DNA of 64,000 bases, from positions 86,484-150,483 of the forward strand of contig NMRA01000183.1 of the NCBI GenBank assembly GCA_002633005.1, written 5' to 3'. Source of the stretch: Phoronis australis (Eukaryota; Animalia; Phoronida). This document shows positions 42,037-58,639 of this stretch, piece after piece. The notes under the pieces were generated by a model. The model was not told the DNA's origin. It saw only the letters and a program-made list of their open reading frames with translations, and searched no databases. Numbering within the stretch: position 1 is the stretch's first letter; each line of letters opens with the position of its first letter. The position numbers and the translations under genes were made by a program.

Positions 42037-45000
42037 ATGGGAAGTGGTTCGAGCCGTCGCGGATCACCACGTGGTCCGTCAGTGGCTGTGGTGGTTGAAG
42101 CAACACAAGACGACGTTGGAGATAGCAAGAAGGTAGGACCACAGGTTGGGTAACCACAAAAACTAGATATTCCACTCTTGAACTGAACTCCGATTCAAGC
42201 TTTTCACTAGCCAAAATTTTCTTCCTGTAGTCTCCCATGTTTTTTTGAGATCCAGCTGGAGTATTGTCAAACTATAAAACGATTTATTTCAAGTCACAAA
42301 TAGAGTTAAGGTAATCGTCCACATCTCAATTCCAGCTTCATAAATATCTTAGCAGGTGCGATTGAGAAACAACGTCGAATTAAGTTTGGGTAACTGAGGC
42401 GTGTTTTGACATCAAACGGCGATTGCAGCTCTTTCATAACCGAATATAAATGTAGCCGACGTGGAGTCGTTGCCAGATTTCTATTGTGTTCTAAGCTCAA
42501 ACAATTTGCGTAGTCATCAAACTAAGCAGGGGGTATTGGGTTTATAAAGTGATTAAAGACACATTGACTTAATGCATAAAGTCATTAGTGCCTCTATTAT
42601 TGCTGTACACATCGAGTCAGTCTACAGTTGGTGGTGGTCGCCGGGGCAATGACGTTGTACAAGTAGTTCGATTTAATTTTGAACCAAAAAGCAAACGAGT
42701 CCAGGGATTGCTATCAGTCAAGAACTAGTTAATATGGACATATTGCTACGTGAAACAGCAAAGTCGGCGTGCTCGGCTAGAGTATCACCATGGAAACTGG
42801 AAAGAAGTGTAAGTGTGTGGGTTTTGAAAAGATGCCGATATGAATAGAAACAGGGTCAAGATGGCAACTGTTTGTTGGATTTGGCTTATCACCAGTCTTT
42901 CAAGGACAGACGAATCTTGTTGTTTTCTAATAAAGTCTATTTTCAGACGACCATTCTAACGCTAAAACACATTAGTTTCGCAAAAATGTTTCAAACAATA
43001 ATAAAAACAATTGAGATGTTGGCTTTCTTATTAAAGTTTCAACGTGATACGGTAGACAAACCAAGACCTAATATTTTGTGGCAGGGGATGACGTTGTCGC
43101 TATTGGGTATTAAGTATGGTGAAGACGCCATGTGAATTAACTTTGCCTTTCAATCGTTTCAGTTCGGCGAAATTAGGTACAATTGTCAATTATCATCAAG
43201 AATAACAGGAACCAAGTTCAAAATATCTTTTATCGGAATATTTAGATCCATATTCAATTTTCATTCACTCAAATATCGTTTACCCGTCATTTCTAGTTCA
43301 CGTAACACGTGGTATCATTGTAACTTAGGTTTTTTTGTTCACATACTTTTCGATATTAATTTGATGCACGTTTAAAAGAGCTGGAACAAAAGCCACAGTT
43401 TAATTCCATTGTAAAAATGAGAATGATCTAAACAAATCAATAAATACATATATGGTATCAATATATTTGATTAACTGGAGTTTGAAACATACAGTGTATG
43501 TGTGTCACCGTATTCGTACATGTACGAGAATGCTGGAAGGTTGATTCATCCGACTAGACCCTTGGAAAGATAGAGAGGATTGCATGCCCGAGGAAGTTTT
43601 GTTTACATATGACATATGAGGCGAGGCTATGCTATGCTTGTCACAGGAGACATTATCATAATATTCTAAATCAAAGGTGACATTACCAGAATGCTCTAAA
43701 AAAATAAAAAAAATCTGTCTACACATAAACCGTGAACATGCTGTCATTGATCAATGTAATTCACAAATTATAGCTGCCAAAACCGGGGTTTTCAAACGGT
43801 TGACTGAAATGACAGCAGAATAGCACCTGGAAACATACATTTGGATTCCGAGAATTAGTTCAAGATAAGCTAATGTAATTCCACCTCATGTATTTTGGTG
43901 TCTTGTAGCCGTCAACGAATGGAGTCCATCATCATCGACCCACAAGTAAGGCGAAATCAAGAACGCAGCCGCGGGGTAACAAAATACTATTTCCTGACGA
44001 CTACCCTCGGCCGTTGCCCCCATCGGACAGTAGAGACGACATTTGCTGTCAGACCATATTAAATTCAATAGACGACTACATTTTTGACGTACGTATCTAA
44101 TCGATTTTGTCTATGCTAAATCGTTCAATATATGTTAGTTAACCTATCGTCAGCCAAGACCAGTTTTTCCTATACTTATCTAGATGATCTTAGTGGACGC
44201 TAAAGCGCGTAAAACATCAAAATTGGAAACTCATCCCAACAACGGAATGTTTAAATAGCGAAACTGCATCTATGCAAGCCAATCGGAACGGAAAATCGCT
44301 TTGACCGACCATAGCGTCAGGTACTTCATGTACTCGTCACGAAGACAACCAAAAGTGAACGAGATTCTCCAATTTCGAATGTCTTTGTATATTAGTTGAG
44401 CAAAGGTAAGGAAGATTGAAATTGACCCTAAGTTTAAGACTTGTCAAAAACACGAAAGCTTGTCACGAGTCGACTTTACAGAAAATCACCTGGGTTTTAT
44501 TGCGTTCGTAAATAACCGTAATCGTATTCTTAAAGTTTACGTTTTCAGCTATTCCTCAGAAATGGCCACGGAGATCAACTAGTCTGTGCAATCAAAGACT
44601 GATTGATGAGAGAACGATTCTGTAGAATCTTAGAAGCCAACCACCTTTAAATCATCCGTGAATCTGTCCTGTTTAAAAGTTGAAGGCTTAAAATATCTTC
44701 GTTTTGAGTCGTCTCTCCTAGATAATGAGTTTGAATCCTTGAACTTTTAATATTTTTAACTCGATTTCGTAGCTTCGACTTAAATGTTTATGTTTTCAAT
44801 TTATTTCGTTTTAGGCACCGGAGGATCTATTGACTGGCTCCTACACAAACCTTGTGAAGTATCTTGTGAATGACGGGAAATGGGGCGACGTAGGGAAGGT
44901 TCGCGCCATCTTTCGGTGGATAACTACGATTGATATATACGGCTTGCTGGACAAGGAGGCGCCAGTGGATACCCCATTAGAATATTTTCAAAGGATAAGA

Positions 45001-48000
45001 AAAGGGACCGGAAATCATGCCCATCTTTTTGCGGGACTGTGCAAGTGAGTCTGTTGCACGTTTTTTTAAATTCATAATTAATATAAACAGGTAATATACA
45101 CTACACTTATTGCCTCGGATGAATCTAAAACTGCCGCGACAGATTTTAATCTACCGCGGGTACCGGAGTTGTGCACCTGTAAGATTTTGAGGGGATGTAT
45201 TGGGAAGCAAATCCCTTCACTAAAATGATCAAGCTTCTATTACTGGTTTTGAAACTTATTCAAATGACGTGGACAGGTGCAAAGGAAGTGGGTCAAAAGC
45301 GGTTTGTTCTACACAACCCTAACCATGGAGAAACATTGTTATGAGCTTAAATCCTGTAATTTGAACCCAAATTGTGCTAGAATGAGTCTAATTCAAAAGA
45401 GGTTGTTATCAGATTGAAATGTCAAACTACTCACTCTTTTTTATATACAACGTATGTTGGGTATTGGAGAGTGACATGGCAAACCTTATTTCGTACTAAA
45501 TCCCCGCAGACCCTAATTTTGCGGCCTGAGATTCTGTCCTCCACAGGGTCCTACAAGTACATGTACAAGTATTTGCAGAATGCAAAGCGGGTGCGAACCA
45601 ACAGGCTCCTTTGCTCGGTTGAAGCAAACGGTCCCAATATAGACACGTAAACAATGTTCTTTAAATTTTCAGCACATTTATAGACTAATGCTACTTTTCT
45701 ATCATTGTATCGTTATTATGAGGTCCTCTTTTGCTTAAAAAAAGTTTATAATAATGTATGTGAAAATTGATTCCTTAGATCAGCGAAACCTAATATGGAC
45801 TACGTCCTTAAATTAGGGAGTGTATGCGAAGATCCCTGTTTATTTTTAAAGATAATATGAATTCACCCAGTGTTTATAACGGTTTCGAATTACGCTAACA
45901 GACTTTGTAGAAAGTTGGACATGGTTCCAGTGTTCCAAAGCTAGCAAAGAACTGTATGGTTTCAAAAAGCCAATTGTTAAAATCCGATTTATTGCCTCTT
46001 TAACGGATCGTTGAAACCTTTTACAGATTTGCTGGTCTAAAATGTGTCATTGTGAATGGAATAAACAAGAGCGCCGCTTACGAGGTTGGTGAAAAAATAA
46101 ACCGCCGCAAGATGGCTGCGCAATGGAATGCCATTTATCTCAATGGCGCCTGGCGATTTGTTGATGTATTCTGGGCATCGACGTGCATTGTGGGTAGAAA
46201 AACCGGAAAATGGACATTGTTGCAGTATGACGGAAGGACAGTGGACAGGCGGATATCCCGTGATGATGGCCGACAAGAGCACAGATCCAACGATTTTTTC
46301 TTCCTGACAGAACCAGAGCAGCTTATATACACGCATTTTCCAAACGATTCTCAGTGGCAGCTACTGAATCGCCCTCTAACATTCGAGGAATTTGAAGAAG
46401 CTGCATACGTCAGAGAGATGTTTTTTCTGATGGGACTGTCTTTTACTGATCAGTCTCATCATAAATGCATTGTCCATGCAGACACTGGTGAAGTAAAAAT
46501 CGAACTCGGCCTACCGCCTAATTCAGAAAAGTACACTTTCAAGTACACGGTATATTTGGAAGAAGACAACAATGACGTTAGGTCGTTTAATGACGATGTT
46601 CAGTTGGAAAACTTTGTGCTCTATCAACAGTCCGAAACTTTTTTGCGTTACTCGTCGAGGTTCCCAGTAGCAGGAACATTTAAAGTCGACATATATGGTC
46701 ATGATGCTACTACGTCTCAAACTTTAGATCTGCTTACTTCATACATTATAAAATGTAAATCTCCATTTCCCAATTGTCAACCATTACCTGACACACCCGC
46801 TATTGGTTGGGGAGTTGGGAAGAAGGCACGGGATATCGGGATACGCGCAAAGTCGCACGAGAATGGTATCATTGAGAGTGCGGACGGAACGTTCGAGATA
46901 AGGCTTAAGTTGGAAAAGGAAATTAATCTGAATCAACTTATTCTGCACAACACAATAAACTCTGAAGACCTCCAACATCACGCAGTTACGCGAATAGAAA
47001 ATGGCGAGGTTATAGTAAACGTGCGCCTTCCAGCAGGCAACAGCCAATATGCTCTTAAGTTGTATGCGAACGAGGCTAGCAATGAAGGCGAGATGGAGAA
47101 TGTTTGTAACTACTTGCTTCGTTCGATGGCCCACCCGCCGCAGCAGAGTTATCCCAAACTTGCGTCAGCTATTCTTGGCGAGAGACCCTTCAATGACAAA
47201 CTTGGTGTGACTGCTTTGACTCATGTGAATGGACTAATAGAGACTACGGACGGAAAAGTAGTTCTGGACTTTGCCAAAGAAAAAGGAGTAGAGCTGTCGT
47301 GTGAGTTAACTAATAACGACTTATTCGAAGAGGCTCTAAAGAAATGTGTGCAAGTTGAACAGGACGAAGATACCGCGAGATTTACGCTCAGTTTAAACGA
47401 AATTGGAGAATATGGATTCAACATCTATGGTCGGCAGAGCGATGACAGACGTCAAATATTTAATTTGCACAATTACCTCATCCAAAAACATTACGATGAG
47501 ACCAGTGAGCGACGTGCCCTTAAACCCTTGCGGCCACCCGTTGGTTTCAAGGCAAATGTTGACGATTTGACAATCCAAGGAGACAAGGCGATCGAAAACT
47601 GGAAAATTGTAACGGCTGACAGAAAGCACAAACTCCGAATTCCAGCGACGTCAAAGAAGACAATTGGTGAACTACGTCGAGTGAACGCCGTTGGGACACA
47701 TTTGAAAGGCGGTGTGAAAATAAAGCGCGACGCAGATGAAGACGTGGTTACTTTAGACCTTCCAGACGACGGAGAGTACGTGTTGAATATATTTGAAAAG
47801 CGCGGGAAAAATGTTTTGTCGACTACAAAAACATATCACGTGGTCAGAGACAGCTCCCTTGTTACAGGAGACGATGGGCTGGACATTGTATCTAGTGATG
47901 CCGAGTCTATGGATAGTTGCTCAACAGAAATACGTCAAATAGTCGAAGAACCTGAGCCCAAACCACCTGGTCCCAAAAGAGGTATGCGTTATATCCGTGT

Positions 48001-51000
48001 GTGTCATTATTGCTGCCGAACGTTTCTTGAACGTACATGTTTGTTGGTACGAGTGAATGAATGAATGTACAGGTTGAATGAAGTACCCCTGGTGTATCTT
48101 AGGTATAAAAGGTAATTTGATGGTATAAGAATCACTTTTCTGTTGTAGTTAGCCAACCAGCAGATTAAATAATCACCAAAACAACTTTTAGAGAATCTAA
48201 AACTTTCTAGAATTATAGTCACGTAATTGTGTGACCATATCTTGAGCAGTATTGCTGTGTGTTTTCATTGGATGTCGCTCTGTTATAACTATTGAAGCCG
48301 CTACAAAACACGCCTTCGCGGGCCGCCAGATAATTCACCCCTGATTCAGACCAATCTCCACTAAGCATAGGAAATTGATTTGAATTTTTGCCTTCATAGG
48401 ACGAAGAGTTTTTTGGTGTAGGAAAGAACGGGTAGTGTTCGAGACCATGTTGGAGGCATAAACTTATCCTCTTTGACAAGCTGGGCCATAAGCAATAGCA
48501 AACTGTCAGTTGTTACCATAAAAGAATATCGTATAAAAGAACGGGAAATGTCCTTAATATGATGTTAAGTTTGACGGAAGGCGGGTTTGTAGGTGCTTTA
48601 ATGAACCATATTATGTAAATAATAGAACTATATTTACTAGACGATGCACAGTTGTCTGATTACGCGGACAGTTTTGACGAAACAGATTGTGGAAGAGAGT
48701 TTAGAGATGTCGACGAAGGCCCAAACATTCTGGTTATCTCCGCCACCCCGCGTGAGTATGACGACGAAGAGGACTTTTCTGAATTCTTCGAAGACGATGA
48801 CTATGATCCTGGCGTACTACTACGCCCAGACGTATTCTACGACAGCGACATCAGTGGGGAATGCATTGCTGATATTATCGTTGTTGGAGAGGAACACGAG
48901 CATATTCCAGCTGACGACGAAACCAGTGACGATATTGTCAGCGATCTGAACAGTAACAGTCAAACTGACGAAGCAACAGACGCATTGTCAGTTGTGGATG
49001 ACTTCGATGAAACGAATGCAATGGGAGAAAATAGCGTGATTGGCTTTTGTAGGGAGGAGCGTGAAGTGAACTTAGATGTTAAAAATTATTCGCAAAAATG
49101 CGATGACAATGAAGTAGCTTTATTGTGTGATGAAAATGAGAAGGAAGAAAGCAGTTGTCAGGATTGCCAGGATGAAGTCATATTGGACGACACAGAGGAG
49201 ATTACACACGAGCATCGTGTAACGGTGGAGAATGAACGTGACCATCACGAGACGGAGGAGAATGAACATGTACATCACGTGACGGAGGAGAATGAACATG
49301 TACATCACGTGACGGAGGAGAATGAAGATGAACGTCACGTTGAAGAAGATCAAGTACAGGATGCTCACGCTGAAGACACACGTAGTTTACATACTCTAGG
49401 TATTTACGTATGAAATTGACAATCCCGTGTGTATACCGTTCCAGTGCACTGTATATACCTGCGTGTTTGACAACCCGCCTGTTTCAATCAAACACTCGGC
49501 ATTGCTTCTTCAACAGAGTGTGGATATGTGCGTGTGTGTGACCTTATGTGTATGTTTGGGTTGAAGTGATACATAAGTTTTTTTTTTACACATTACAAGA
49601 TCTTTGTGTGACCAGGGTTGCTGTCCTTAGAGTATTTAAAATAGCGAGGCGCTAGGAGTTTTCACAGTAAAGTGACAGTATAAATTTTTTGGTCTTTCAA
49701 GTCTGTGAGTAGGCCTTCATTCAAAGAAAGTGATATTTAAGACATTGACACATTCTCCTGCCTCTACTACATCTTGTCAAATGTCATGAATACAAAGAAC
49801 TGCACGAGATATATTAGTACAACTATGGCTCACTCTTTTATGTCGCGTTTCTATATATTGACAAATACTTTTATAAATATCATACTTACGTTACAGATGA
49901 CCAGGAAGAGATAGCAGCAATGCAGACTATCGAGGAGGAGTCTCCAAGACTACTTGTCAATAAAGCAGACGATTCAGCTACCGAGTCTGTTGATGGGGAC
50001 AGCGACAAAGATGTAGAAAGCCCAGTTGTAGCAAAAACAGAAGAAGAGTTAGAAATGGAACGAATTGAAGAAGAAAACCGAATAGCCGAAGAGGCTGAGA
50101 CAAAGAAAGGTATTCTGCTCCTTGTTGGATAGTCTAGGTCATGGCTTTTTTAAAACACAAGTTCATATATTTTGAATTTTCGAAAGCCGAAAAGCGATTC
50201 TTATACCATTGATGTGATCGTCTGGTATTCTTTGAATTTCCATTTGTTTTGTCTGTCTCTCCTGGTTTTTGTTCGTGTGTGTGAATGTGTGTACATCTTT
50301 AGTGCCATTGTGAATGTTTCCAGGGACTTTTTGAAGAATGCAGTTGTTGTAATATAAGTCATTCAGGCCTCTCCTTGACTAGAAACGTATGTTTACGTTC
50401 TCTGTTTTAATTGGTTAGTTGCTTTGGATGACCGACATCTCACGCTACATTAAAATGTGACGTATGTAAAAAGGTCAATGACATTGTTGTGCAAAGTTAT
50501 AATGAGTAATGTTAATGCCGGGCTGCAATAACTTGCTGTTCCTTTATTTTGTTTTGGAATTTGGAGTTCATTGACATGTAGTGCACTTATGAGCTAGAAA
50601 AAATATAATATTAACAACAAATAACAAGCAAAATGCATGTCATGTAGATAGCAACTAGCTATGAAGCTCACCAGATGTCAAATGTCACCCGAGAAATTCT
50701 ATATTTTATGAATCCCACCAGATGTCACTAGTCACCCGAGAGATTCTATACTTTCAGCTCGACAAAAGAAACGGCTGACCGAGCGGCTGCAGGAGGCCAT
50801 GAAAGTACGTCTGGACGTGGATCGTTTGAGCCGTGCTATTTCAAAGTTCATCTCAGCTGGTATAGAGAACGACGCGTTACTAGCCGAGGGCAAGAGGATG
50901 CTGGAACTGTGGACTCTAATACTAAGTTAGCATGTTTCTATGCCATATTTTAGTTCTTGTACTGCACACAATACCCTATAAAGCCACGAAACGACGTAGT

Positions 51001-54000
51001 GTATGGCTAGAAGTTTTCAATTAAAGTCTCATTGGAAGTTCAAGATAAGAAGTTTAAACATAATTCTGTACCACGCAAGAATTTTTACGCACTGTCTATC
51101 AGTCGTTAGTAGTTTCTTTCCTCAGGACAAGAATTGTACGATGACACTTGGCTTAGCTCAAAATCATACTCTGCCACACGGTTTGGTAATTGGCGAAATT
51201 ATTTTTCACAATTAGCAGAATTAATTAGGAGCACAATGTGGCAAGATTATACAAAAGTTTCAGGCTGTAAAAGTCAAATTTCTTGCCGGTTTGCATAATT
51301 CAAAAACCTGATCGCGTGTACTTTTCACGAACTATTCAAATATACTATATAAAAACTTTCGAAACGAAAACTTAAAACATACAAATGTCGCACCCAAGTG
51401 GTTATAACGGTCCGATTATCTAGAGAACGATAGCATCAGCAGCCTGAGGCAATAATTAACTGTGATATACCGGCAAATTTCAAGGTACGCTAACCGATCC
51501 AGTTGCCCAATCTCGCCCAGAGAGAGTGTCAACATAGCATTCTTTTGAAGGTGTCCAGATTAAAACCGCGTTCAGAAGTGTAAAAAGGCGGAGTGGAAGT
51601 TTCATTTGATTGTAGGTCTGCAGCTTAAGACTAGCGTTTACAAAGGCTTCGTAACAGCCGTCTTATGAGTAATTTACCAAACTCGTAAGATCACCATGGG
51701 CGAAGAGAGCCAAAACCCACGTTACGTCACTAGATTGTCTTCTCTAGCAAATAGGGTAGACGTGTCATGTCTGATTTTCGGGGCTGAATATATGCAGGCA
51801 GATCAAAGGTCCAACGAGCGTTCACATGTGATTTTTTCAGAAGGCAGGCTTACCTTTTCAATGGACGGCATGTGAGCGCTTTGTAACGTCGTTTGTGTGT
51901 TTCCGCAAAACCCAATCACAGAATATACATAATGACTTTAATAACTTTTGTGACGCCCTTGCAGATTTGAACACCGGTATCCGGACCAGAAACATTAAAT
52001 TGGTTGAGCCAGCCATACAAAAGGCGGCTCGTCACGACGACAGTGAGTTAAGGAATTACGTGGCCTTAGCACATCGAATGATGGAACAGGTACGCAAAAT
52101 AGAACGCCTGCGCCACTCCATCTTAAAGTTGAACCAAAAGACAATTGCTGAAATTCGCGCCTATAGTCGACCGCCGCCAGCTGTTGAGCAAGTGATGACA
52201 GCCTCTTTCCTTCTGATGGGGGAAGAAGAATATGAACTGAAGGTACGATTAAAAGATCTAACCTGCAACCTGGATACCGCCATAAGTTCTCATAACTTTC
52301 GTTGTTCATATTGTACGTTCTTGGTAAATGTACTGAATAATCGTAAGAAATACCTTTCAGCATTGGACAGTACAATGTACTTTCGTTTATATTTATCGAA
52401 ACTCTACCAAAGAATTTTTGGCATAGACCTGGGCCAGGTCTAACCTTTTTACTAAAAATATAAACTCAAATTTAATTTTGACTGTTTTATTCTAGTTGTG
52501 TACGAACTCAAGAAAAGTATCTGTTGAGCAATGGTCGAGTACATGATGTTGTAGTCCTACAAACGTGTATATCTCCTTGTCCTACACTGTATATCTCATT
52601 GTCCTACACACGTGTACATCTCATTTTCCTACACACGTGTATATCTCCTTGTCCTATACACGTGTGTATCTCATTGTCCTACACACGTGTACATTTGTTG
52701 TGATCTGAGTCATCTGAGTGAAGAACCGACATCACTGCACAAGGGATATCCCCATAAACACTCCATCCCCCGAAGAAGTAGATCCCGAAGTGTGTAGATG
52801 CTGACAGTTCCAATCAGTGGATGATTCACTAGCCTTCTGTTTCTTCCACAAAGTCTTGATTTTCTGCAAGCAGCCCATCCAACTCCTAGCTCACGAAGTC
52901 GTTCCAAATGATGATGTTCCGATTCCTCTTGGTCCTTCTTCAGCTTCTCCCTGACCATATTCACAATTTCCGGTTTAGCAGGGCACAGCTTCCCTTCTGG
53001 TTTTGCTTTCCCAGCCAGCTCATCAGCACGTTCATTCCCCCTAGCTCCAGCATGGCCTGGGGTAAATATCCAGGTGATCTTTTTCAAAGTCGCCTTTGTT
53101 AGGAGCTCAGTCAATTCAACTCTCAAATGCCCACTTTCAATTTTCTTCAGAGTGCTTTGTGAATCTGTAACAAAGATCAAATGTGCTTGCCGAGTTGTTG
53201 TCACCCACTCGAGAGCCTGTGTAATTGCTTCTATCTCCATTCTCATGCTGGAAGTTGTCATACTGTAAGCTCCCTGCTGTTCCTGCTCTAGTCTGCCATT
53301 TACAATCGCTGAGAAACCCCATCCAGATTGTTCTCCTCTTTTAACAAATCCATCCGAGTAAACAACTACATCTCCATGCCGAGAGTAGTCTTCAATAAGT
53401 TGTTGTACACACGTATATATCTCATTATCCTTCACACATGTATATCCCATGGGGAGGATAAAATTCTATGCATATCCAAATATTTCTTTACAAGGACTGG
53501 AAGTGGATTCAGTGTTTGATGGGCAGAATAGGACCCGATAGCGTGAAGAAGCGGGTGGCTGATACAAACGTGGACGATGTTCCAATCGAAATTGCACTCC
53601 GAGCTCAGCAGATTTATGAAGGGTTTACACTAAACGACGTGAGAGACGTTAGTGCAGGCGCGGCAGCCTTCTACGTTTGGGTACGTATTGCTCTTTGCCT
53701 AGATGATGTTGTTTAATTCAAGTGGCTAATAGATGAAAATCTGATTAAAAGGTTTAAATATTTTCCTGAAAACCAGCCAAATGAGCTCTAAAGACCTTCT
53801 TTTAGAAACTGTCACGGTACTTTTTTGACAAACGCCGGTCACCTTGAACTTATATTTTATAGACTTCAGGAATGATTGAAGCTTGCATAAACAACTTCAA
53901 GGCCGCCGGAGGAAACCTATTCTCTGTACGACCGAAAACGTGCCGCCGTCCGGGCACTCGAGGAAGGCCTTTCACAATGGCGGGTAACCGGCCCCAAACA

Positions 54001-54138
54001 CAAGCTGGCAGACGACCTGCGACGCAAGCAACGAGACCATTCACGCAGGGCGACATCCCACGTTCTGAGAGTCAAGTGCATCAGGAACGACGCTTATCAC
54101 ACGAACTCCCACCAAAACCAAAGATTACACAATGGTGA
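42037..54138 (+). CDS. Hillarin/kyphoscoliosis peptidase (KY)/LTD-1-family protein, ~1446 aa, with a C-terminal dynein-MTBD-like domain
   Basis: Phase-consistent exons 42037-42132 (MGSGSS..., alternative in-phase donor at 42144), 43909-44088, 44815-45044, 46027-47981, 48641-49399, 49897-50109, 50758-50925, 51965-52242, 53495-53680, 53863-54138 (total 4341 nt, in frame). Family motifs: YPRPLPP...IDDYIFDAP, KVRAIFRWIT, HLFAGLC, VNGINKSAAYEVG, QWNAIYLNGAWRFVD, NDFFFLTEPEQLIYTHFPND..WQLL, then four KY-type Ig-like repeats. Confidence 0.88.
52553..52693 (+). repeat. ~25-bp minisatellite, continuing at 53404-53450 beyond the LINE insertion
   Basis: Unit CACACGTGTATATCTCATTGTCCTA on both sides of the RNase H fragment. 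Confidence 0.85.
52694..53403 (-). mobile_element. 5'-truncated non-LTR retrotransposon (I/Ingi-like LINE) fragment encoding RNase H, antisense in an intron of the hillarin-like gene
   Basis: ORF 52710-53450 carries RNase H motifs VYSDG, MRMEIEA, FVTDS, WIFTPGHAG..GNERADELA. Short 3' terminal repeat (CTCAGAT x2 on the minus strand). Possible TGTACA TSD at 52688-52693 and 53404-53409. Confidence 0.85.
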
Positions 54139-55384
54139 CCGTCGCCGCTGCCAGATAAAGCCCCATCATGCACGCCATTGACTCCTTTGCTATGCTTGTC
54201 TTTATTCGTAACACTCGTCAATGCTATCTATCATATAATACTTGTTCTAAAATTCAGAATCTTCCAAAATTTGACGAAGGTATGACACGAGGAATCCAAA
54301 GGTCAACTTCCATTCCTAATATTATGAATGCGCCCGTATCACGTCCAGAACCCTCCACAAAGAAAATCCAGTCATTTATCACAAATGTGACGGAGCTTGA
54401 TTGCAGCCGTTCAACTTAAGAACACGGGCACCCACGCAAAATTGAACAAGGCACGTGTATGCAATGTTTCAGTCAACCAAACCAACAAAGAAATACTAGT
54501 AACGTGGAAAAGCCCTTAAAGCGAATCACATAGACGTTTAATGCAGTTACGTTTGCTTGTAGACAAATATTCATTATCAGTTCTGTCTTTATATTATCTT
54601 TATTTACCCCTTCGTTAGTTTCTGGAACTGCTCACAGGCGCCTCCTATCCTGTATATTTGGATTTTAAAGGGACCATAAACCCTCACTACTCTATCCAAA
54701 ACATCTTTTGATGCAGGCCGCTTGCCGTTATACAGTCAATCTCATAGTTATTTCTGGGTTTGAGAAGAGCTGACAATTCCCTATCATTGTTCGGACCAGG
54801 CCCATGAAATTTGCTTGTCACGGCGGGGCAGTTTTGCCGACGAATGATGTCAAAAGGTTTTCAGGCATTTTTATGTTACCACTTTTGATTTAAGCAAAGG
54901 TAATGACCTTACTTAGGACCAACAAGAACGCCTTTGAAGACAATCTGATTGACACTTGCACATTATTTTAGCGGCTGTGAATTTGTAGCACATGCGATTA
55001 TCTATTTCTTGTAGCGCATTTTGCTTTTCGCGCACTTTTATTGTTATAGTGTTGTCCTTGACAATGAACATGTATATGTTCGAAGATTTGGAATCGTCAC
55101 ATTGACGTTGATTCTTGTCCACGTTTACGATCAGACAGTGGCTCTGTGATAACCTCCGATCCCTCAACTGGAGAGTGTACGGAATACAATTGAGTTGTTC
55201 TACATTCCGTGTACATGTACATGTACGTGTACACGCGTGGGTCTGAGATATCTTGCGCCCTTTTTGATTCCTTGTCTAACTTGTAAAGTAGATACTTTCA
55301 TACCCGATCTAAAATGTACAAACAGTTAGAATAACATGAACTTGATTAGGTAATGTATAAGTTGCATGGGATGTGTACATGTTC

Positions 55385-56839: not shown

Positions 56840-57667
56840 TTAGTGTGGTTTTCTACACAAAATTAACAACATTGGAACACTGAGTTTCAAATAAAAACTG
56901 TCACGTTCTGATGGCTCAATACCAACCTCTTTTATTATGTCTTCGTAGAGATCCTCGAGCAAATCTCTACCGCCTAGTGCAAATTTGAGATAATTTTGGT
57001 AGGCGGAATAGCTCTTCATAAATCCAGTAAATTGTGGAAGGCTCATGACTATTTCCTCTTTCTTGAGACGTCTCTGAACCACTGCATACGGTAATTGTAA
57101 ATCGTTGTATAAGTTTAATACCGTACGTTTCCTCTGTAACCAATCAGGGGACTGGAACTCATATAATCTGTTTTCGTAGATGTTGATTAAATCATTAATT
57201 CTTGTTGATTTTTTGTTGGAGACAACATGAGGTGGGAATCCAACGTAGAGAAAAACCGCAAAACCTCCTCCAGGGACGAGGATTCTATCTACTTCGCTAA
57301 AAAACTGAGACAAGTTAAAATAATGAAGAGCTGCAAAAGTGGTTACCAAATCGACTTCGTTGTTTTTGAACGGAAGACACTTGGCTTGGGCAATGCGAAA
57401 TGCAACGTTGTCACTCTGGTTAGTCATCGCCGCCATATTTATCTGACTTTCACTTTCATCAATGCCAACAACTCTTGAGAAATACCGCGAAAGTGGTGCG
57501 CATGCTTGTCCTGTACCACAACCCACATCCACAGCTAAGTCGAACTTCCTTCCCCCGCGTTCCACGAACTTGACAATGTCTTCAAAAACCCATGCAGGAG
57601 GTTGAAAACGAAATTTCTGATAGAGAAGTGAGTGGGCTACTCCAGCAAAGTACTTGGTGGTATTCAT
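56840..57667 (-). CDS. Class I SAM-dependent methyltransferase (Methyltransf_11-type, DDB_G0268948-like), 275 aa, uninterrupted CDS
   Basis: Motif I AVDVGCGTGQ, post-I VVGIDESESQI, motif II LPFKNNEVDLVT, ALHYF, motif III DRILVPGG; N-terminal YQKFRFQPP and C-terminal SYSAYQNY typical of this subfamily. Confidence 0.92.
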   Translation of the reverse strand: MNTTKYFAGVAHSLLYQKFRFQPPAWVFEDIVKFVERGGRKFDLAVDVGCGTGQACAPLSRYFSRVVGIDESESQINMAAMTNQSDNVAFRIAQAKCLPFKNNEVDLVTTFAALHYFNLSQFFSEVDRILVPGGGFAVFLYVGFPPHVVSNKKSTRINDLINIYENRLYEFQSPDWLQRKRTVLNLYNDLQLPYAVVQRRLKKEEIVMSLPQFTGFMKSYSAYQNYLKFALGGRDLLEDLYEDIIKEVGIEPSERDSFYLKLSVPMLLILCRKPH

Positions 57668-58639
57668 TACTTGCAGATGTTGTCAAATTCCCTTGAAGCA
57701 GCACACAAGATAGAGCGACAGATGTTGAGCTTCTCAAGCGGTTCAACGACCTTTGCCAGCCGGCCCTGAAATGCACACAAGAAAGTCAACGTATTTCAAT
57801 GCACGTGTCCTGAGAAGAGGGCTAATCTCAATAGGAACATGTTTGGTTTATACTACGCATTCTATAAAGATTAGTGGGCATTTGAAGCAACATACATATT
57901 TAGACATAATATTATTGTGGTGCTGAAACAACATGCCAATACGGTGTCTGGTAAACGTACATTACACTGTTTACTTTTTGGTACGTTCCACCCACTGGCA
58001 GGTGAAAAGCACCTCCCACGTGGTTGAAAAAATACCTTTCAACTAGGTGGTAAATCAAGTGGTATCGAATCCTCATTTTAATTTAAAATGGCGACTTTGA
58101 AAAGTTCAATGAAAAAACTCAGCATAATATCGACTGTGGATTGCCATCCATTGCATACCTGTAGTGATGCACCTATGGCGCTGAGGAACACCAGGGGTGA
58201 AGTAATCACCATCTACGTCTGTGTGGGATTCAGTAACATGGACATTATCTGCCTCAGTGGCAGCACAGATCATAGGCAACTGTAGTATCGACGTGATCCA
58301 AAAGAACTGAGGCCTACTGCCGACTGCTGCTGTTATAGGTGACTTTATGGTCTAAGGACAAAGGTGTTGTGGCTACTCCTACAGGAACACCTGAAAAAAA
58401 TGTACAAGCGATCTTTCCGAGAAGAATGTTATCACTGAATATAAAGCGACCTTAAACCAGAGTGTCTTTTGTCAAAACGAGTTTTGATTTAGATCACTTA
58501 CCGTTGGTCTTACATGTACCTTGGTCCTCACTCAGTTTAGACTGATATCTCGACTCAGAAAGAACTGACAGCACGTTATTAGTTCAGAAGCTCATACACT
58601 TTCACTTCATGGAACTCCAAATTTTACAGATACGAGCGT

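Follow-up and report, generated by a model that had tools for sequence, protein, structure and literature searches.

A conserved invertebrate scaffold protein with a predicted motor-less homologue of the dynein microtubule-binding domain at its C-terminus

The analysis of a 64,000-nucleotide stretch of the Phoronis australis genome (contig NMRA01000183.1, positions 86,484 to 150,483; hereafter the window) revealed a gene whose predicted product joins a KY/hillarin-type pseudo-transglutaminase and Ig scaffold to a dynein-type domain. Judged by sequence profile and by modelled fold, the C-terminal domain is a homologue of the dynein microtubule-binding domain (MTBD) without the motor. The gene lies at 42037–54138 on the + strand and has 10 exons with GT-AG introns throughout, which give a single stop-free frame of 1446 aa; the spliced translation without the acidic exon 5 is 1193 aa. 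The start codon was placed from homologues. The parts of the gene are as follows.

42037..42132, +, exon 1: start codon, then MGSGSS, a predicted motif of the N-myristoylation type
43909..44088, +, exon 2: the flexible N-terminal arm ends and the folded part begins
44815..45044, +, exon 3: first half of the transglutaminase-like domain, with Thr in place of the catalytic Cys
46027..47981, +, exon 4: remaining transglutaminase-like domain, where Ala stands in place of the His, followed by four beta-sandwich domains of Ig type
48641..49399, +, exon 5, optional: in-frame acidic low-complexity insert of 253 aa, skipped by junction reads
49897..50109, +, exon 6: acidic linker leading into the first helix of the module
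50758..50925, +, exon 7: capping bundle, first helical hairpin
51965..52242, +, exon 8: the bundle's second helical hairpin, then the CC1 stub (about 52042-52122) and MTBD helices H1-H2
52150-52152, +, exon 8: codon of the invariant Glu
52713..53465, -, intron 8: RNase H open frame of a retroelement fragment (PF00075, E 3e-15), not part of the protein
53495..53680, +, exon 9: MTBD helices H3-H6 and start of CC2, with the invariant Trp and the basic H3-H4 loop
53645-53647, +, exon 9: Asp where yeast dynein has R3201
53863..54138, +, exon 10: remainder of the CC2 stub, then a basic low-complexity tail and the stop codon

The initial annotation had spliced exons 8-10 in frame, and its coordinates proved correct: the exon ends are AG/GT, the joins are phase 0/0 and the translation equals its peptide. 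The Pfam scan of single exons placed PF23265 on exon 4 (E 5e-56, in three stretches) and returned no hit in exon 5. Transcripts were drawn from three raw RNA runs and one contig set with the same species label; 18–19% of each raw run was used, and a splice joint was counted only at three or more reads. Joints were found between exons 2 and 3 (44088-44815, 3 reads) and between exons 4 and 6 (47981-49897, 5 reads, exon 5 skipped), while exon 5 had weak sense depth (0.6–0.7) in one run. No joint reached three reads at 1-2, 3-4, 6-7, 7-8, 8-9 or 9-10, at a depth under about 5 over the gene in the 18–19% of the runs used. The transcript link from exon 4 to exons 8-10, by which the annotation proposed to check the gene, was thus obtained as far as exon 6, with no joint from exon 6 to exons 7-10. 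Because no joint reached that count there, exon 6 was linked to the MTBD exons by the reading frame and by colinear homologues.

Sense-strand RNA depth covered exon 4 and exons 8, 9 and 10, reaching 4.5 in exon 9 and zero in the bin inside intron 9. It continued past exon 10 to at least 54700. One RNA contig of 162 letters terminates exactly at the exon-8 donor (52242). The 3′-end of the gene is overlapped by reads in either orientation (window 53891-54178 on the + strand, reads 53934-54612), which suggests an antisense transcript or the 3′-end of a neighbour.

With exon 4 as the query, 14 proteins were retrieved. Five of them are long, from Lottia, Mytilus, Lingula, Paralvinella and a close relative, and all five aligned colinearly with the whole model at 34–36% identity; the alignments (E 3e-40 to 2e-54) included the C-terminal domain. 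The other nine were records of 512–691 aa that cover the exon-4 region only. The layout is identical end to end in the limpet, mussel, brachiopod and annelid proteins, so the fusion of the scaffold with the MTBD homologue is, on this comparison, real and conserved and not an artefact of prediction. PF01841 was above its cut-off in all five homologues and was not detected on the split exons of the window. Together with the single frame and PF23265, this agrees with the earlier proposal of one gene with KY/hillarin-type pseudo-transglutaminase and Ig domains.

The dynein relationship of the C-terminal domain was visible from exon 8 alone. When its 92 aa were compared with 177,635 PDB sequences, DNAH2 was matched at E 2.9e-4, and 17 of the 19 matches up to E 10 were named dynein heavy chains. 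A five-sequence profile matched DNAH6 at E 2e-7. A 40-sequence profile matched the yeast dynein MTBD (E 1.7e-13); of its 78 PDB sequences, the 56 best were dynein chains, one of which (4583 aa) is labelled radial-spoke. A word-indexed search of longer proteins with exon 8 alone, too short a query for it, gave 105 candidates, none significant.

The fold comparison used the AlphaFold model of the Lingula homologue and not the spliced protein of the window. Against 48,161 chains, the Lingula domain (pLDDT 89) gave Z 17.1 to 3err and Z 16.9 to 5ayh, with an rmsd of 1.7 Å over 123 residues for 5AYH; unrelated helical proteins started at Z 8.8. The match to 9fqr_Xl (Z 10.2, rmsd 7.9 Å) was set aside as generically helical. 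Foldseek also ranked dyneins first for this model, with modest E-values of which one was below 0.001. The homology proposed in the initial annotation, and the structural check that it named, were therefore borne out by the profile and the fold. Its expected match to Pfam MT (PF12777) was absent: no single exon of the window matched this 344-position model, which includes the stalk. Lingula scored 16.3 bits against a gathering score of 24 bits, four other homologues had no match, and 2 of the 105 scanned carriers passed the cut-off. Since Pfam MT mostly misses the carriers, they are labelled hillarin-like, KY or uncharacterised in databases. The absence of a motor was rightly called: the 1446-aa frame contains no AAA+ ring or long stalk, and no AAA family is listed for the 105 carriers.

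The full-length Lingula model (pLDDT 85) begins with 55 disordered residues, followed by the transglutaminase-like domain, four beta-sandwiches and a loose linker. Its C-terminal part comprises a helical bundle and then the head, which is framed by a CC1 of 25 residues and a CC2 of 24. The six-helix head stands between antiparallel CC1 and CC2, and the bundle occupies the place of the long stalk and AAA ring of dynein. In the window protein, the acylation motif and the flexible arm precede the transglutaminase-like domain and the four Ig-like domains, after which come the acidic linker, bundle, stub and MTBD fold. The bundle, coiled-coil stub and MTBD travel together as one module of ~220 aa, a unit that the first reading of the sequence had missed.

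The family resembles the dynein heavy-chain stalk tip (PF12777; 3ERR, 5AYH, 6KJO, 6RZB) in its six-helix head between CC1 and CC2, in the Glu/Arg of H1, in the PP loop and in both core Trp residues, at Z 13–17.5 and 13–20% identity. Unlike dynein, it has no AAA ring, long stalk or CC1 proline and carries a helical-bundle cap instead; the proline of the aligned dyneins occurs in at most 1 of 135 domains at each of 11 columns. It also differs from the dynein MTBD by a three-residue basic insertion between H3 and H4 and by the usual replacement of the H6 Arg.

The scaffold half resembles KY, hillarin, LTD-1 and Cyk3 (PF01841 and PF23265) in having a transglutaminase-like core followed by KY-type Ig domains. 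Hillarin and LTD-1 carry LIM domains, and Cyk3 carries an SH3 domain. Unlike these proteins, the family has an acylation motif at its start, the MTBD module at its end and no LIM or SH3 match. The first reading had noted that the characterised proteins carry LIM or SH3 and not an MTBD; here, neither LIM nor SH3 was found in the Pfam scans of the five homologues or among the families listed for the 105 carriers; the disordered start of the model is in line with this. The window has Thr, Ala and Asp at the positions of the Cys-His-Asp triad. Neither a Cys at the nucleophile column nor a His at the second column occurred in any of 85 aligned domains (10 were gapped at the first column); the triad columns were set in part from the KY motif and the His column from the FAP246 alignment. 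Passages of PMC3718969 describe Cyk3 and related proteins without catalytic residues, as in this family.

Among solved structures, the scaffold half was matched best by Chlamydomonas FAP246 (7N6G chain 6E; sequence E 1.4e-4, fold E 6e-16), described in part of bioRxiv 2022.01.23.477438 as a C1b protein of the central pair, a ciliary microtubule structure. FAP246 is likewise a transglutaminase-like and Ig-like protein, and it is built into a ciliary microtubule structure. According to the same passages it has guanylate kinase and EF-hand domains, unlike this family. Its matches stop short of the MTBD and of the acylation motif.

The module profile found 1583 cluster representatives at E ≤ 0.001 and 678 at 1e-10, among which dyneins are possible beyond the best 150. 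The family survey covers the best 150 of the 1583; 105 of the 148 new ones were scanned, after the removal of 41 short records and two long repeat proteins. In this sample, KY Ig domains were present in 50 of the 105 scanned carriers. VWA was present in four, two of them with CLCA, and EGF, CD20-like or EF-hand domains were seen in single or paired carriers (CD20-like and EF-hand below the cut-off). Many of the 105 had no other family. The module is nearly always at the C-terminal end, and it is also found by itself and attached to other proteins. One copy per protein is the case for most members, and tandem copies occur in some (three in P0015, two in P0122). The exon-8 segment (profile 56-66 to 152-163) was a separate short protein in 15 of the 27 short matches, which suggests that intron positions are shared.

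An organism was named for 24 of the 30 proteins looked up: nine from molluscs, five from tunicates, four from amphioxus, two from annelids, two from sponges, one from a hemichordate and one from a flatworm. KY fusions were seen in molluscs, annelids and amphioxus, and in one brachiopod and one flatworm. The named organisms included no vertebrate, arthropod or nematode, in a sample from the best matches that is too small to define the range. As far as these sequences go, it is a mobile module that spans sponges, spiralians and invertebrate deuterostomes. The earlier idea of an MTBD grafted onto a pseudo-transglutaminase/Ig scaffold thus stands as a conserved fusion and falls as a one-off event, and the architecture survey that it called for was run on this sample instead of on whole proteomes. 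Atlas look-alikes at 0.88–0.89 were MT-bearing mollusc clusters, which serve as a lead only.

Three KY-type carriers (P0023, from amphioxus, P0025 and P0029) have a CARD-like domain inserted just before the module. Two long proteins, P0082 and P0159, have 19 and 21 matches to the helical-bundle part alone. The cap is therefore a repeat unit that exists also without the head.

A membrane theme runs through the family. The window protein begins with MGSGSS, a predicted N-myristoylation-type motif that the initial annotation had overlooked, and such a motif was present in all five full-length homologues. Counts were made on 127 carriers with a complete head, after five near-duplicate cluster members were dropped; 122 of them start with Met, and many other records are fragments. 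The myristoylation pattern, MG-x-x-x-S/T at the N-terminus, was found in 42 of the 122 Met-starting carriers, compared with 15 of 1803 internal Met residues (0.8%), and an MG start with a Cys by position 6 in 22 of the 122. The motif also heads stand-alone module proteins. A membrane span upstream of the module was predicted in 14 of the 127 carriers, among them CLCA/VWA, CD20-like and EGF proteins; the hydropathy scan behind this count is crude and picks up a few KY proteins and signal peptides too. Proteins acylated at their N-terminus are often directed to the ciliary membrane.

The residues by which dynein contacts the microtubule were compared by hand on the 40-sequence-profile alignment in yeast numbering. 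A passage of PMC7042235 gives six salt-bridge residues of yeast Dyn1: K3117, E3122, R3124, R3152, R3159 and R3201. In PMC4298687, passages name the H1 Glu as the partner of alpha-tubulin R403, and describe this Glu and the H6 Arg/Lys as both central to strong binding; parts of PMC6629372 and PMC4987762 concur on the mouse equivalents. Passages of PMC4298687, PMC4987762 and PMC7042235 show the arginine of H6, R3201 (R3382 in mouse, R3469 in Dictyostelium), as a main alpha-tubulin contact.

At these six positions, the window protein carries Q, E, R, K, G and D. Three of the six contacts are kept, and a basic residue lies one position off each of the three that are lost. Glu was present at the E3122 position in all 135 complete domains. 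K or R was found in 105 of 135 at R3124, in 45 at R3152 and in 22 at K3117; at R3159 it was found in 20, and one residue later in 103. The R3201 position was D or E in 64 of 135 and K or R in 15. One residue before it, K or R was present in 80 of 135, which may or may not replace the H6 arginine. A family-specific basic loop follows H3, with 103–111 of 135 domains basic at four columns. Seed bias does not explain the invariance of the Glu, because only the H1 Glu and the core Trp of 31 seed-invariant columns stayed at 135 of 135; the invariant Glu could be structural. The net charge of the head is −3 in the window, compared with a family median of +2 and +2 in yeast (the latter counted by hand). 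The interface thus reads as mixed, with the H1 half kept and the H6 half altered, and microtubule binding is a prediction. In the domain tree, the window protein grouped with two annelid proteins (support 0.8). No donor dynein, date or order of fusion was drawn from this tree, because its deep support is weak and a dynein outgroup is absent.

Two further solved chains matched the head at 11–12% identity, both below the caution line of about 13 that applies to Z for helical folds: 9YA2 chain L from the Toxoplasma intraconoidal microtubule (residues 1207-1457; Z 10.8, rmsd 2.9, 125 residues) and 7JTK chain C from the radial spoke (Z 11.6, rmsd 3.8, 147 residues). Neither was among the listed sequence matches of the profile. 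We take 7JTK chain C to be RSP2. The end of the radial-spoke complex that bears this MTBD-like chain sits off the microtubule lattice. The structure papers on the radial spoke may already describe the MTBD-like fold of that subunit. From its size, 9YA2 chain L is probably ICMAP2, which a passage of PMC12819142 places on the microtubule surface with an 8-nm repeat. The main text of that source does not mention dynein outside the references, and the passages of the two papers on ICMAP2 make no mention of a dynein-like fold. By analogy, these precedents would cut both ways for tubulin binding, 9YA2 chain L for it and the radial-spoke chain against it.

The gene encodes a motor-less scaffold ending in a dynein-type MTBD, and we propose that this protein acts as a static tether between membrane and microtubule; we give this reading about an even chance of being right. 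The N-terminal Gly would be myristoylated and would hold the protein at the membrane. The invariant H1 Glu and the nearby Arg would let the MTBD-like head dock at the intradimer site of alpha/beta-tubulin, with the family-specific basic H3-H4 loop standing in for the lost contacts. The helical bundle would replace the long stalk and AAA ring and fix the register of CC1 and CC2, so that affinity, in this proposal, would be constant and not cycled by ATP. This affinity is probably weaker than that of dynein and likely modest. The pseudo-enzyme and Ig domains may serve as a spacer and partner-binding platform. The protein would most likely sit at the membrane of cilia or flagella or at the cell cortex in ciliated cells, which is the weakest step of the proposal.

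The main rival, which we hold to be possible, is that the dynein-derived head is reused as a protein-protein interaction module that no longer binds microtubules. The protein would then be a KY/hillarin-type scaffold, anchored in a membrane, for other partners such as septins, filamin or a small GTPase. The charge reversal at R3201 and the loss of K3117 and R3159 fit this idea, and so does the occurrence of an MTBD-like fold in the head/neck of the radial spoke (7jrj_I, Z 7.1; 7jtk_C, Z 11.6). Inactive transglutaminase-like scaffolds with such partners exist: in passages of PMC3718969, Cyk3 binds Rho1-GDP and hillarin acts with septins. However, the residues conserved most strictly are the acidic tubulin contact and the basic residues of H1 and of the H3-H4 loop, and a C-terminal module on many unrelated membrane-linked proteins fits a generic cytoskeletal grip. 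An intermediate case, which seems unlikely to us, is that the head binds tubulin weakly or in another geometry (diffusively on the lattice, on free or curved tubulin, or on a specific doublet protofilament) and needs membrane clustering or tandem copies to hold. The partial contact set and the tandem copies of P0015 and P0122 point this way, as would the globular domain dimer of Toxoplasma ICMAP2 between protofilaments (a passage of PMC12819142) if 9YA2 chain L is ICMAP2, yet most members are single-copy.

Two other explanations touch the reality of the protein and the nature of its core, and both are very improbable in our judgement. The join could be a gene-model artefact, with exons 1-4 and 7-10 belonging to two genes or exons 8-10 being the relic of a broken dynein gene, and the lack of counted joints over exons 6-10 would permit it. 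Canonical splice sites, one open frame and the RNA joint from exon 4 to exon 6 argue against it, as do the five full-length colinear homologues and the KY Ig domains in nearly half of the scanned carriers. The transglutaminase-like domain could also be enzymatically active and be brought to tubulin by the MTBD-like head, in the manner of a vasohibin-like modifier. Vasohibins do have a transglutaminase-like protease fold acting on tubulin tails (a passage of PMC13406575), but Thr and Ala stand at the Cys and His positions of the window protein, and none of the 85 aligned domains has either catalytic residue.

The dynein MTBD is usually treated as part of a motor, its grip being switched by the ATPase ring. 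If the membrane-microtubule tether is correct, a large animal family has kept the head, dropped the motor and added a membrane anchor, which would amount to a new kind of microtubule-associated protein and make the family a candidate for the bridges between membranes and microtubules. More broadly and more tentatively, the module may define an overlooked invertebrate class of membrane-microtubule linkers, from sponges to tunicates, built from a domesticated dynein stalk tip. In this class, the bundle, stub and MTBD would sit on lipid anchors, transmembrane receptors and pseudo-transglutaminase scaffolds and would supply the bridges, observed for long but poorly identified, that link the ciliary membrane or cell cortex to microtubules. 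The family further provides a natural experiment for separating the MTBD residues that matter for binding from those that matter for allostery, with the H1 Glu invariant and the H6 Arg and CC1 proline gone. The domain is small, predicted to fold well and directly assayable. The initial annotation knew of no functional description of this architecture; likewise, no literature on it or on motor-less dynein MTBDs in animals was found in a search of open-access main texts. The term 'MTBD' does not occur in a 2026 review of microtubule-associated proteins. Literature matches to 'MTBD-like' concern TTLL11, which is unrelated, and were rejected.

Several other features were observed in the window. 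The RNase H frame in intron 8 is flanked by short tandem repeats, and divergent reads from other copies pile up on it. Intron 7 contains, at 51128-51500, a mosaic of short high-copy repeat pieces with many loose-ended reads. A 148-codon frame on the - strand (30025-30468) has one membrane span and matched ISK_Channel, the KCNE-type potassium-channel beta subunit (E 1.4e-6; 28.5 bits, cut-off 22.1); to our knowledge, KCNE-like genes are little described in spiralians. A single-exon-looking class I SAM methyltransferase gene (56843-57682, - strand; PF08241, E 5e-21) is convergent with the MTBD gene. A tRNA-Asp(GTC) gene is located at 36475-36546 on the - strand.
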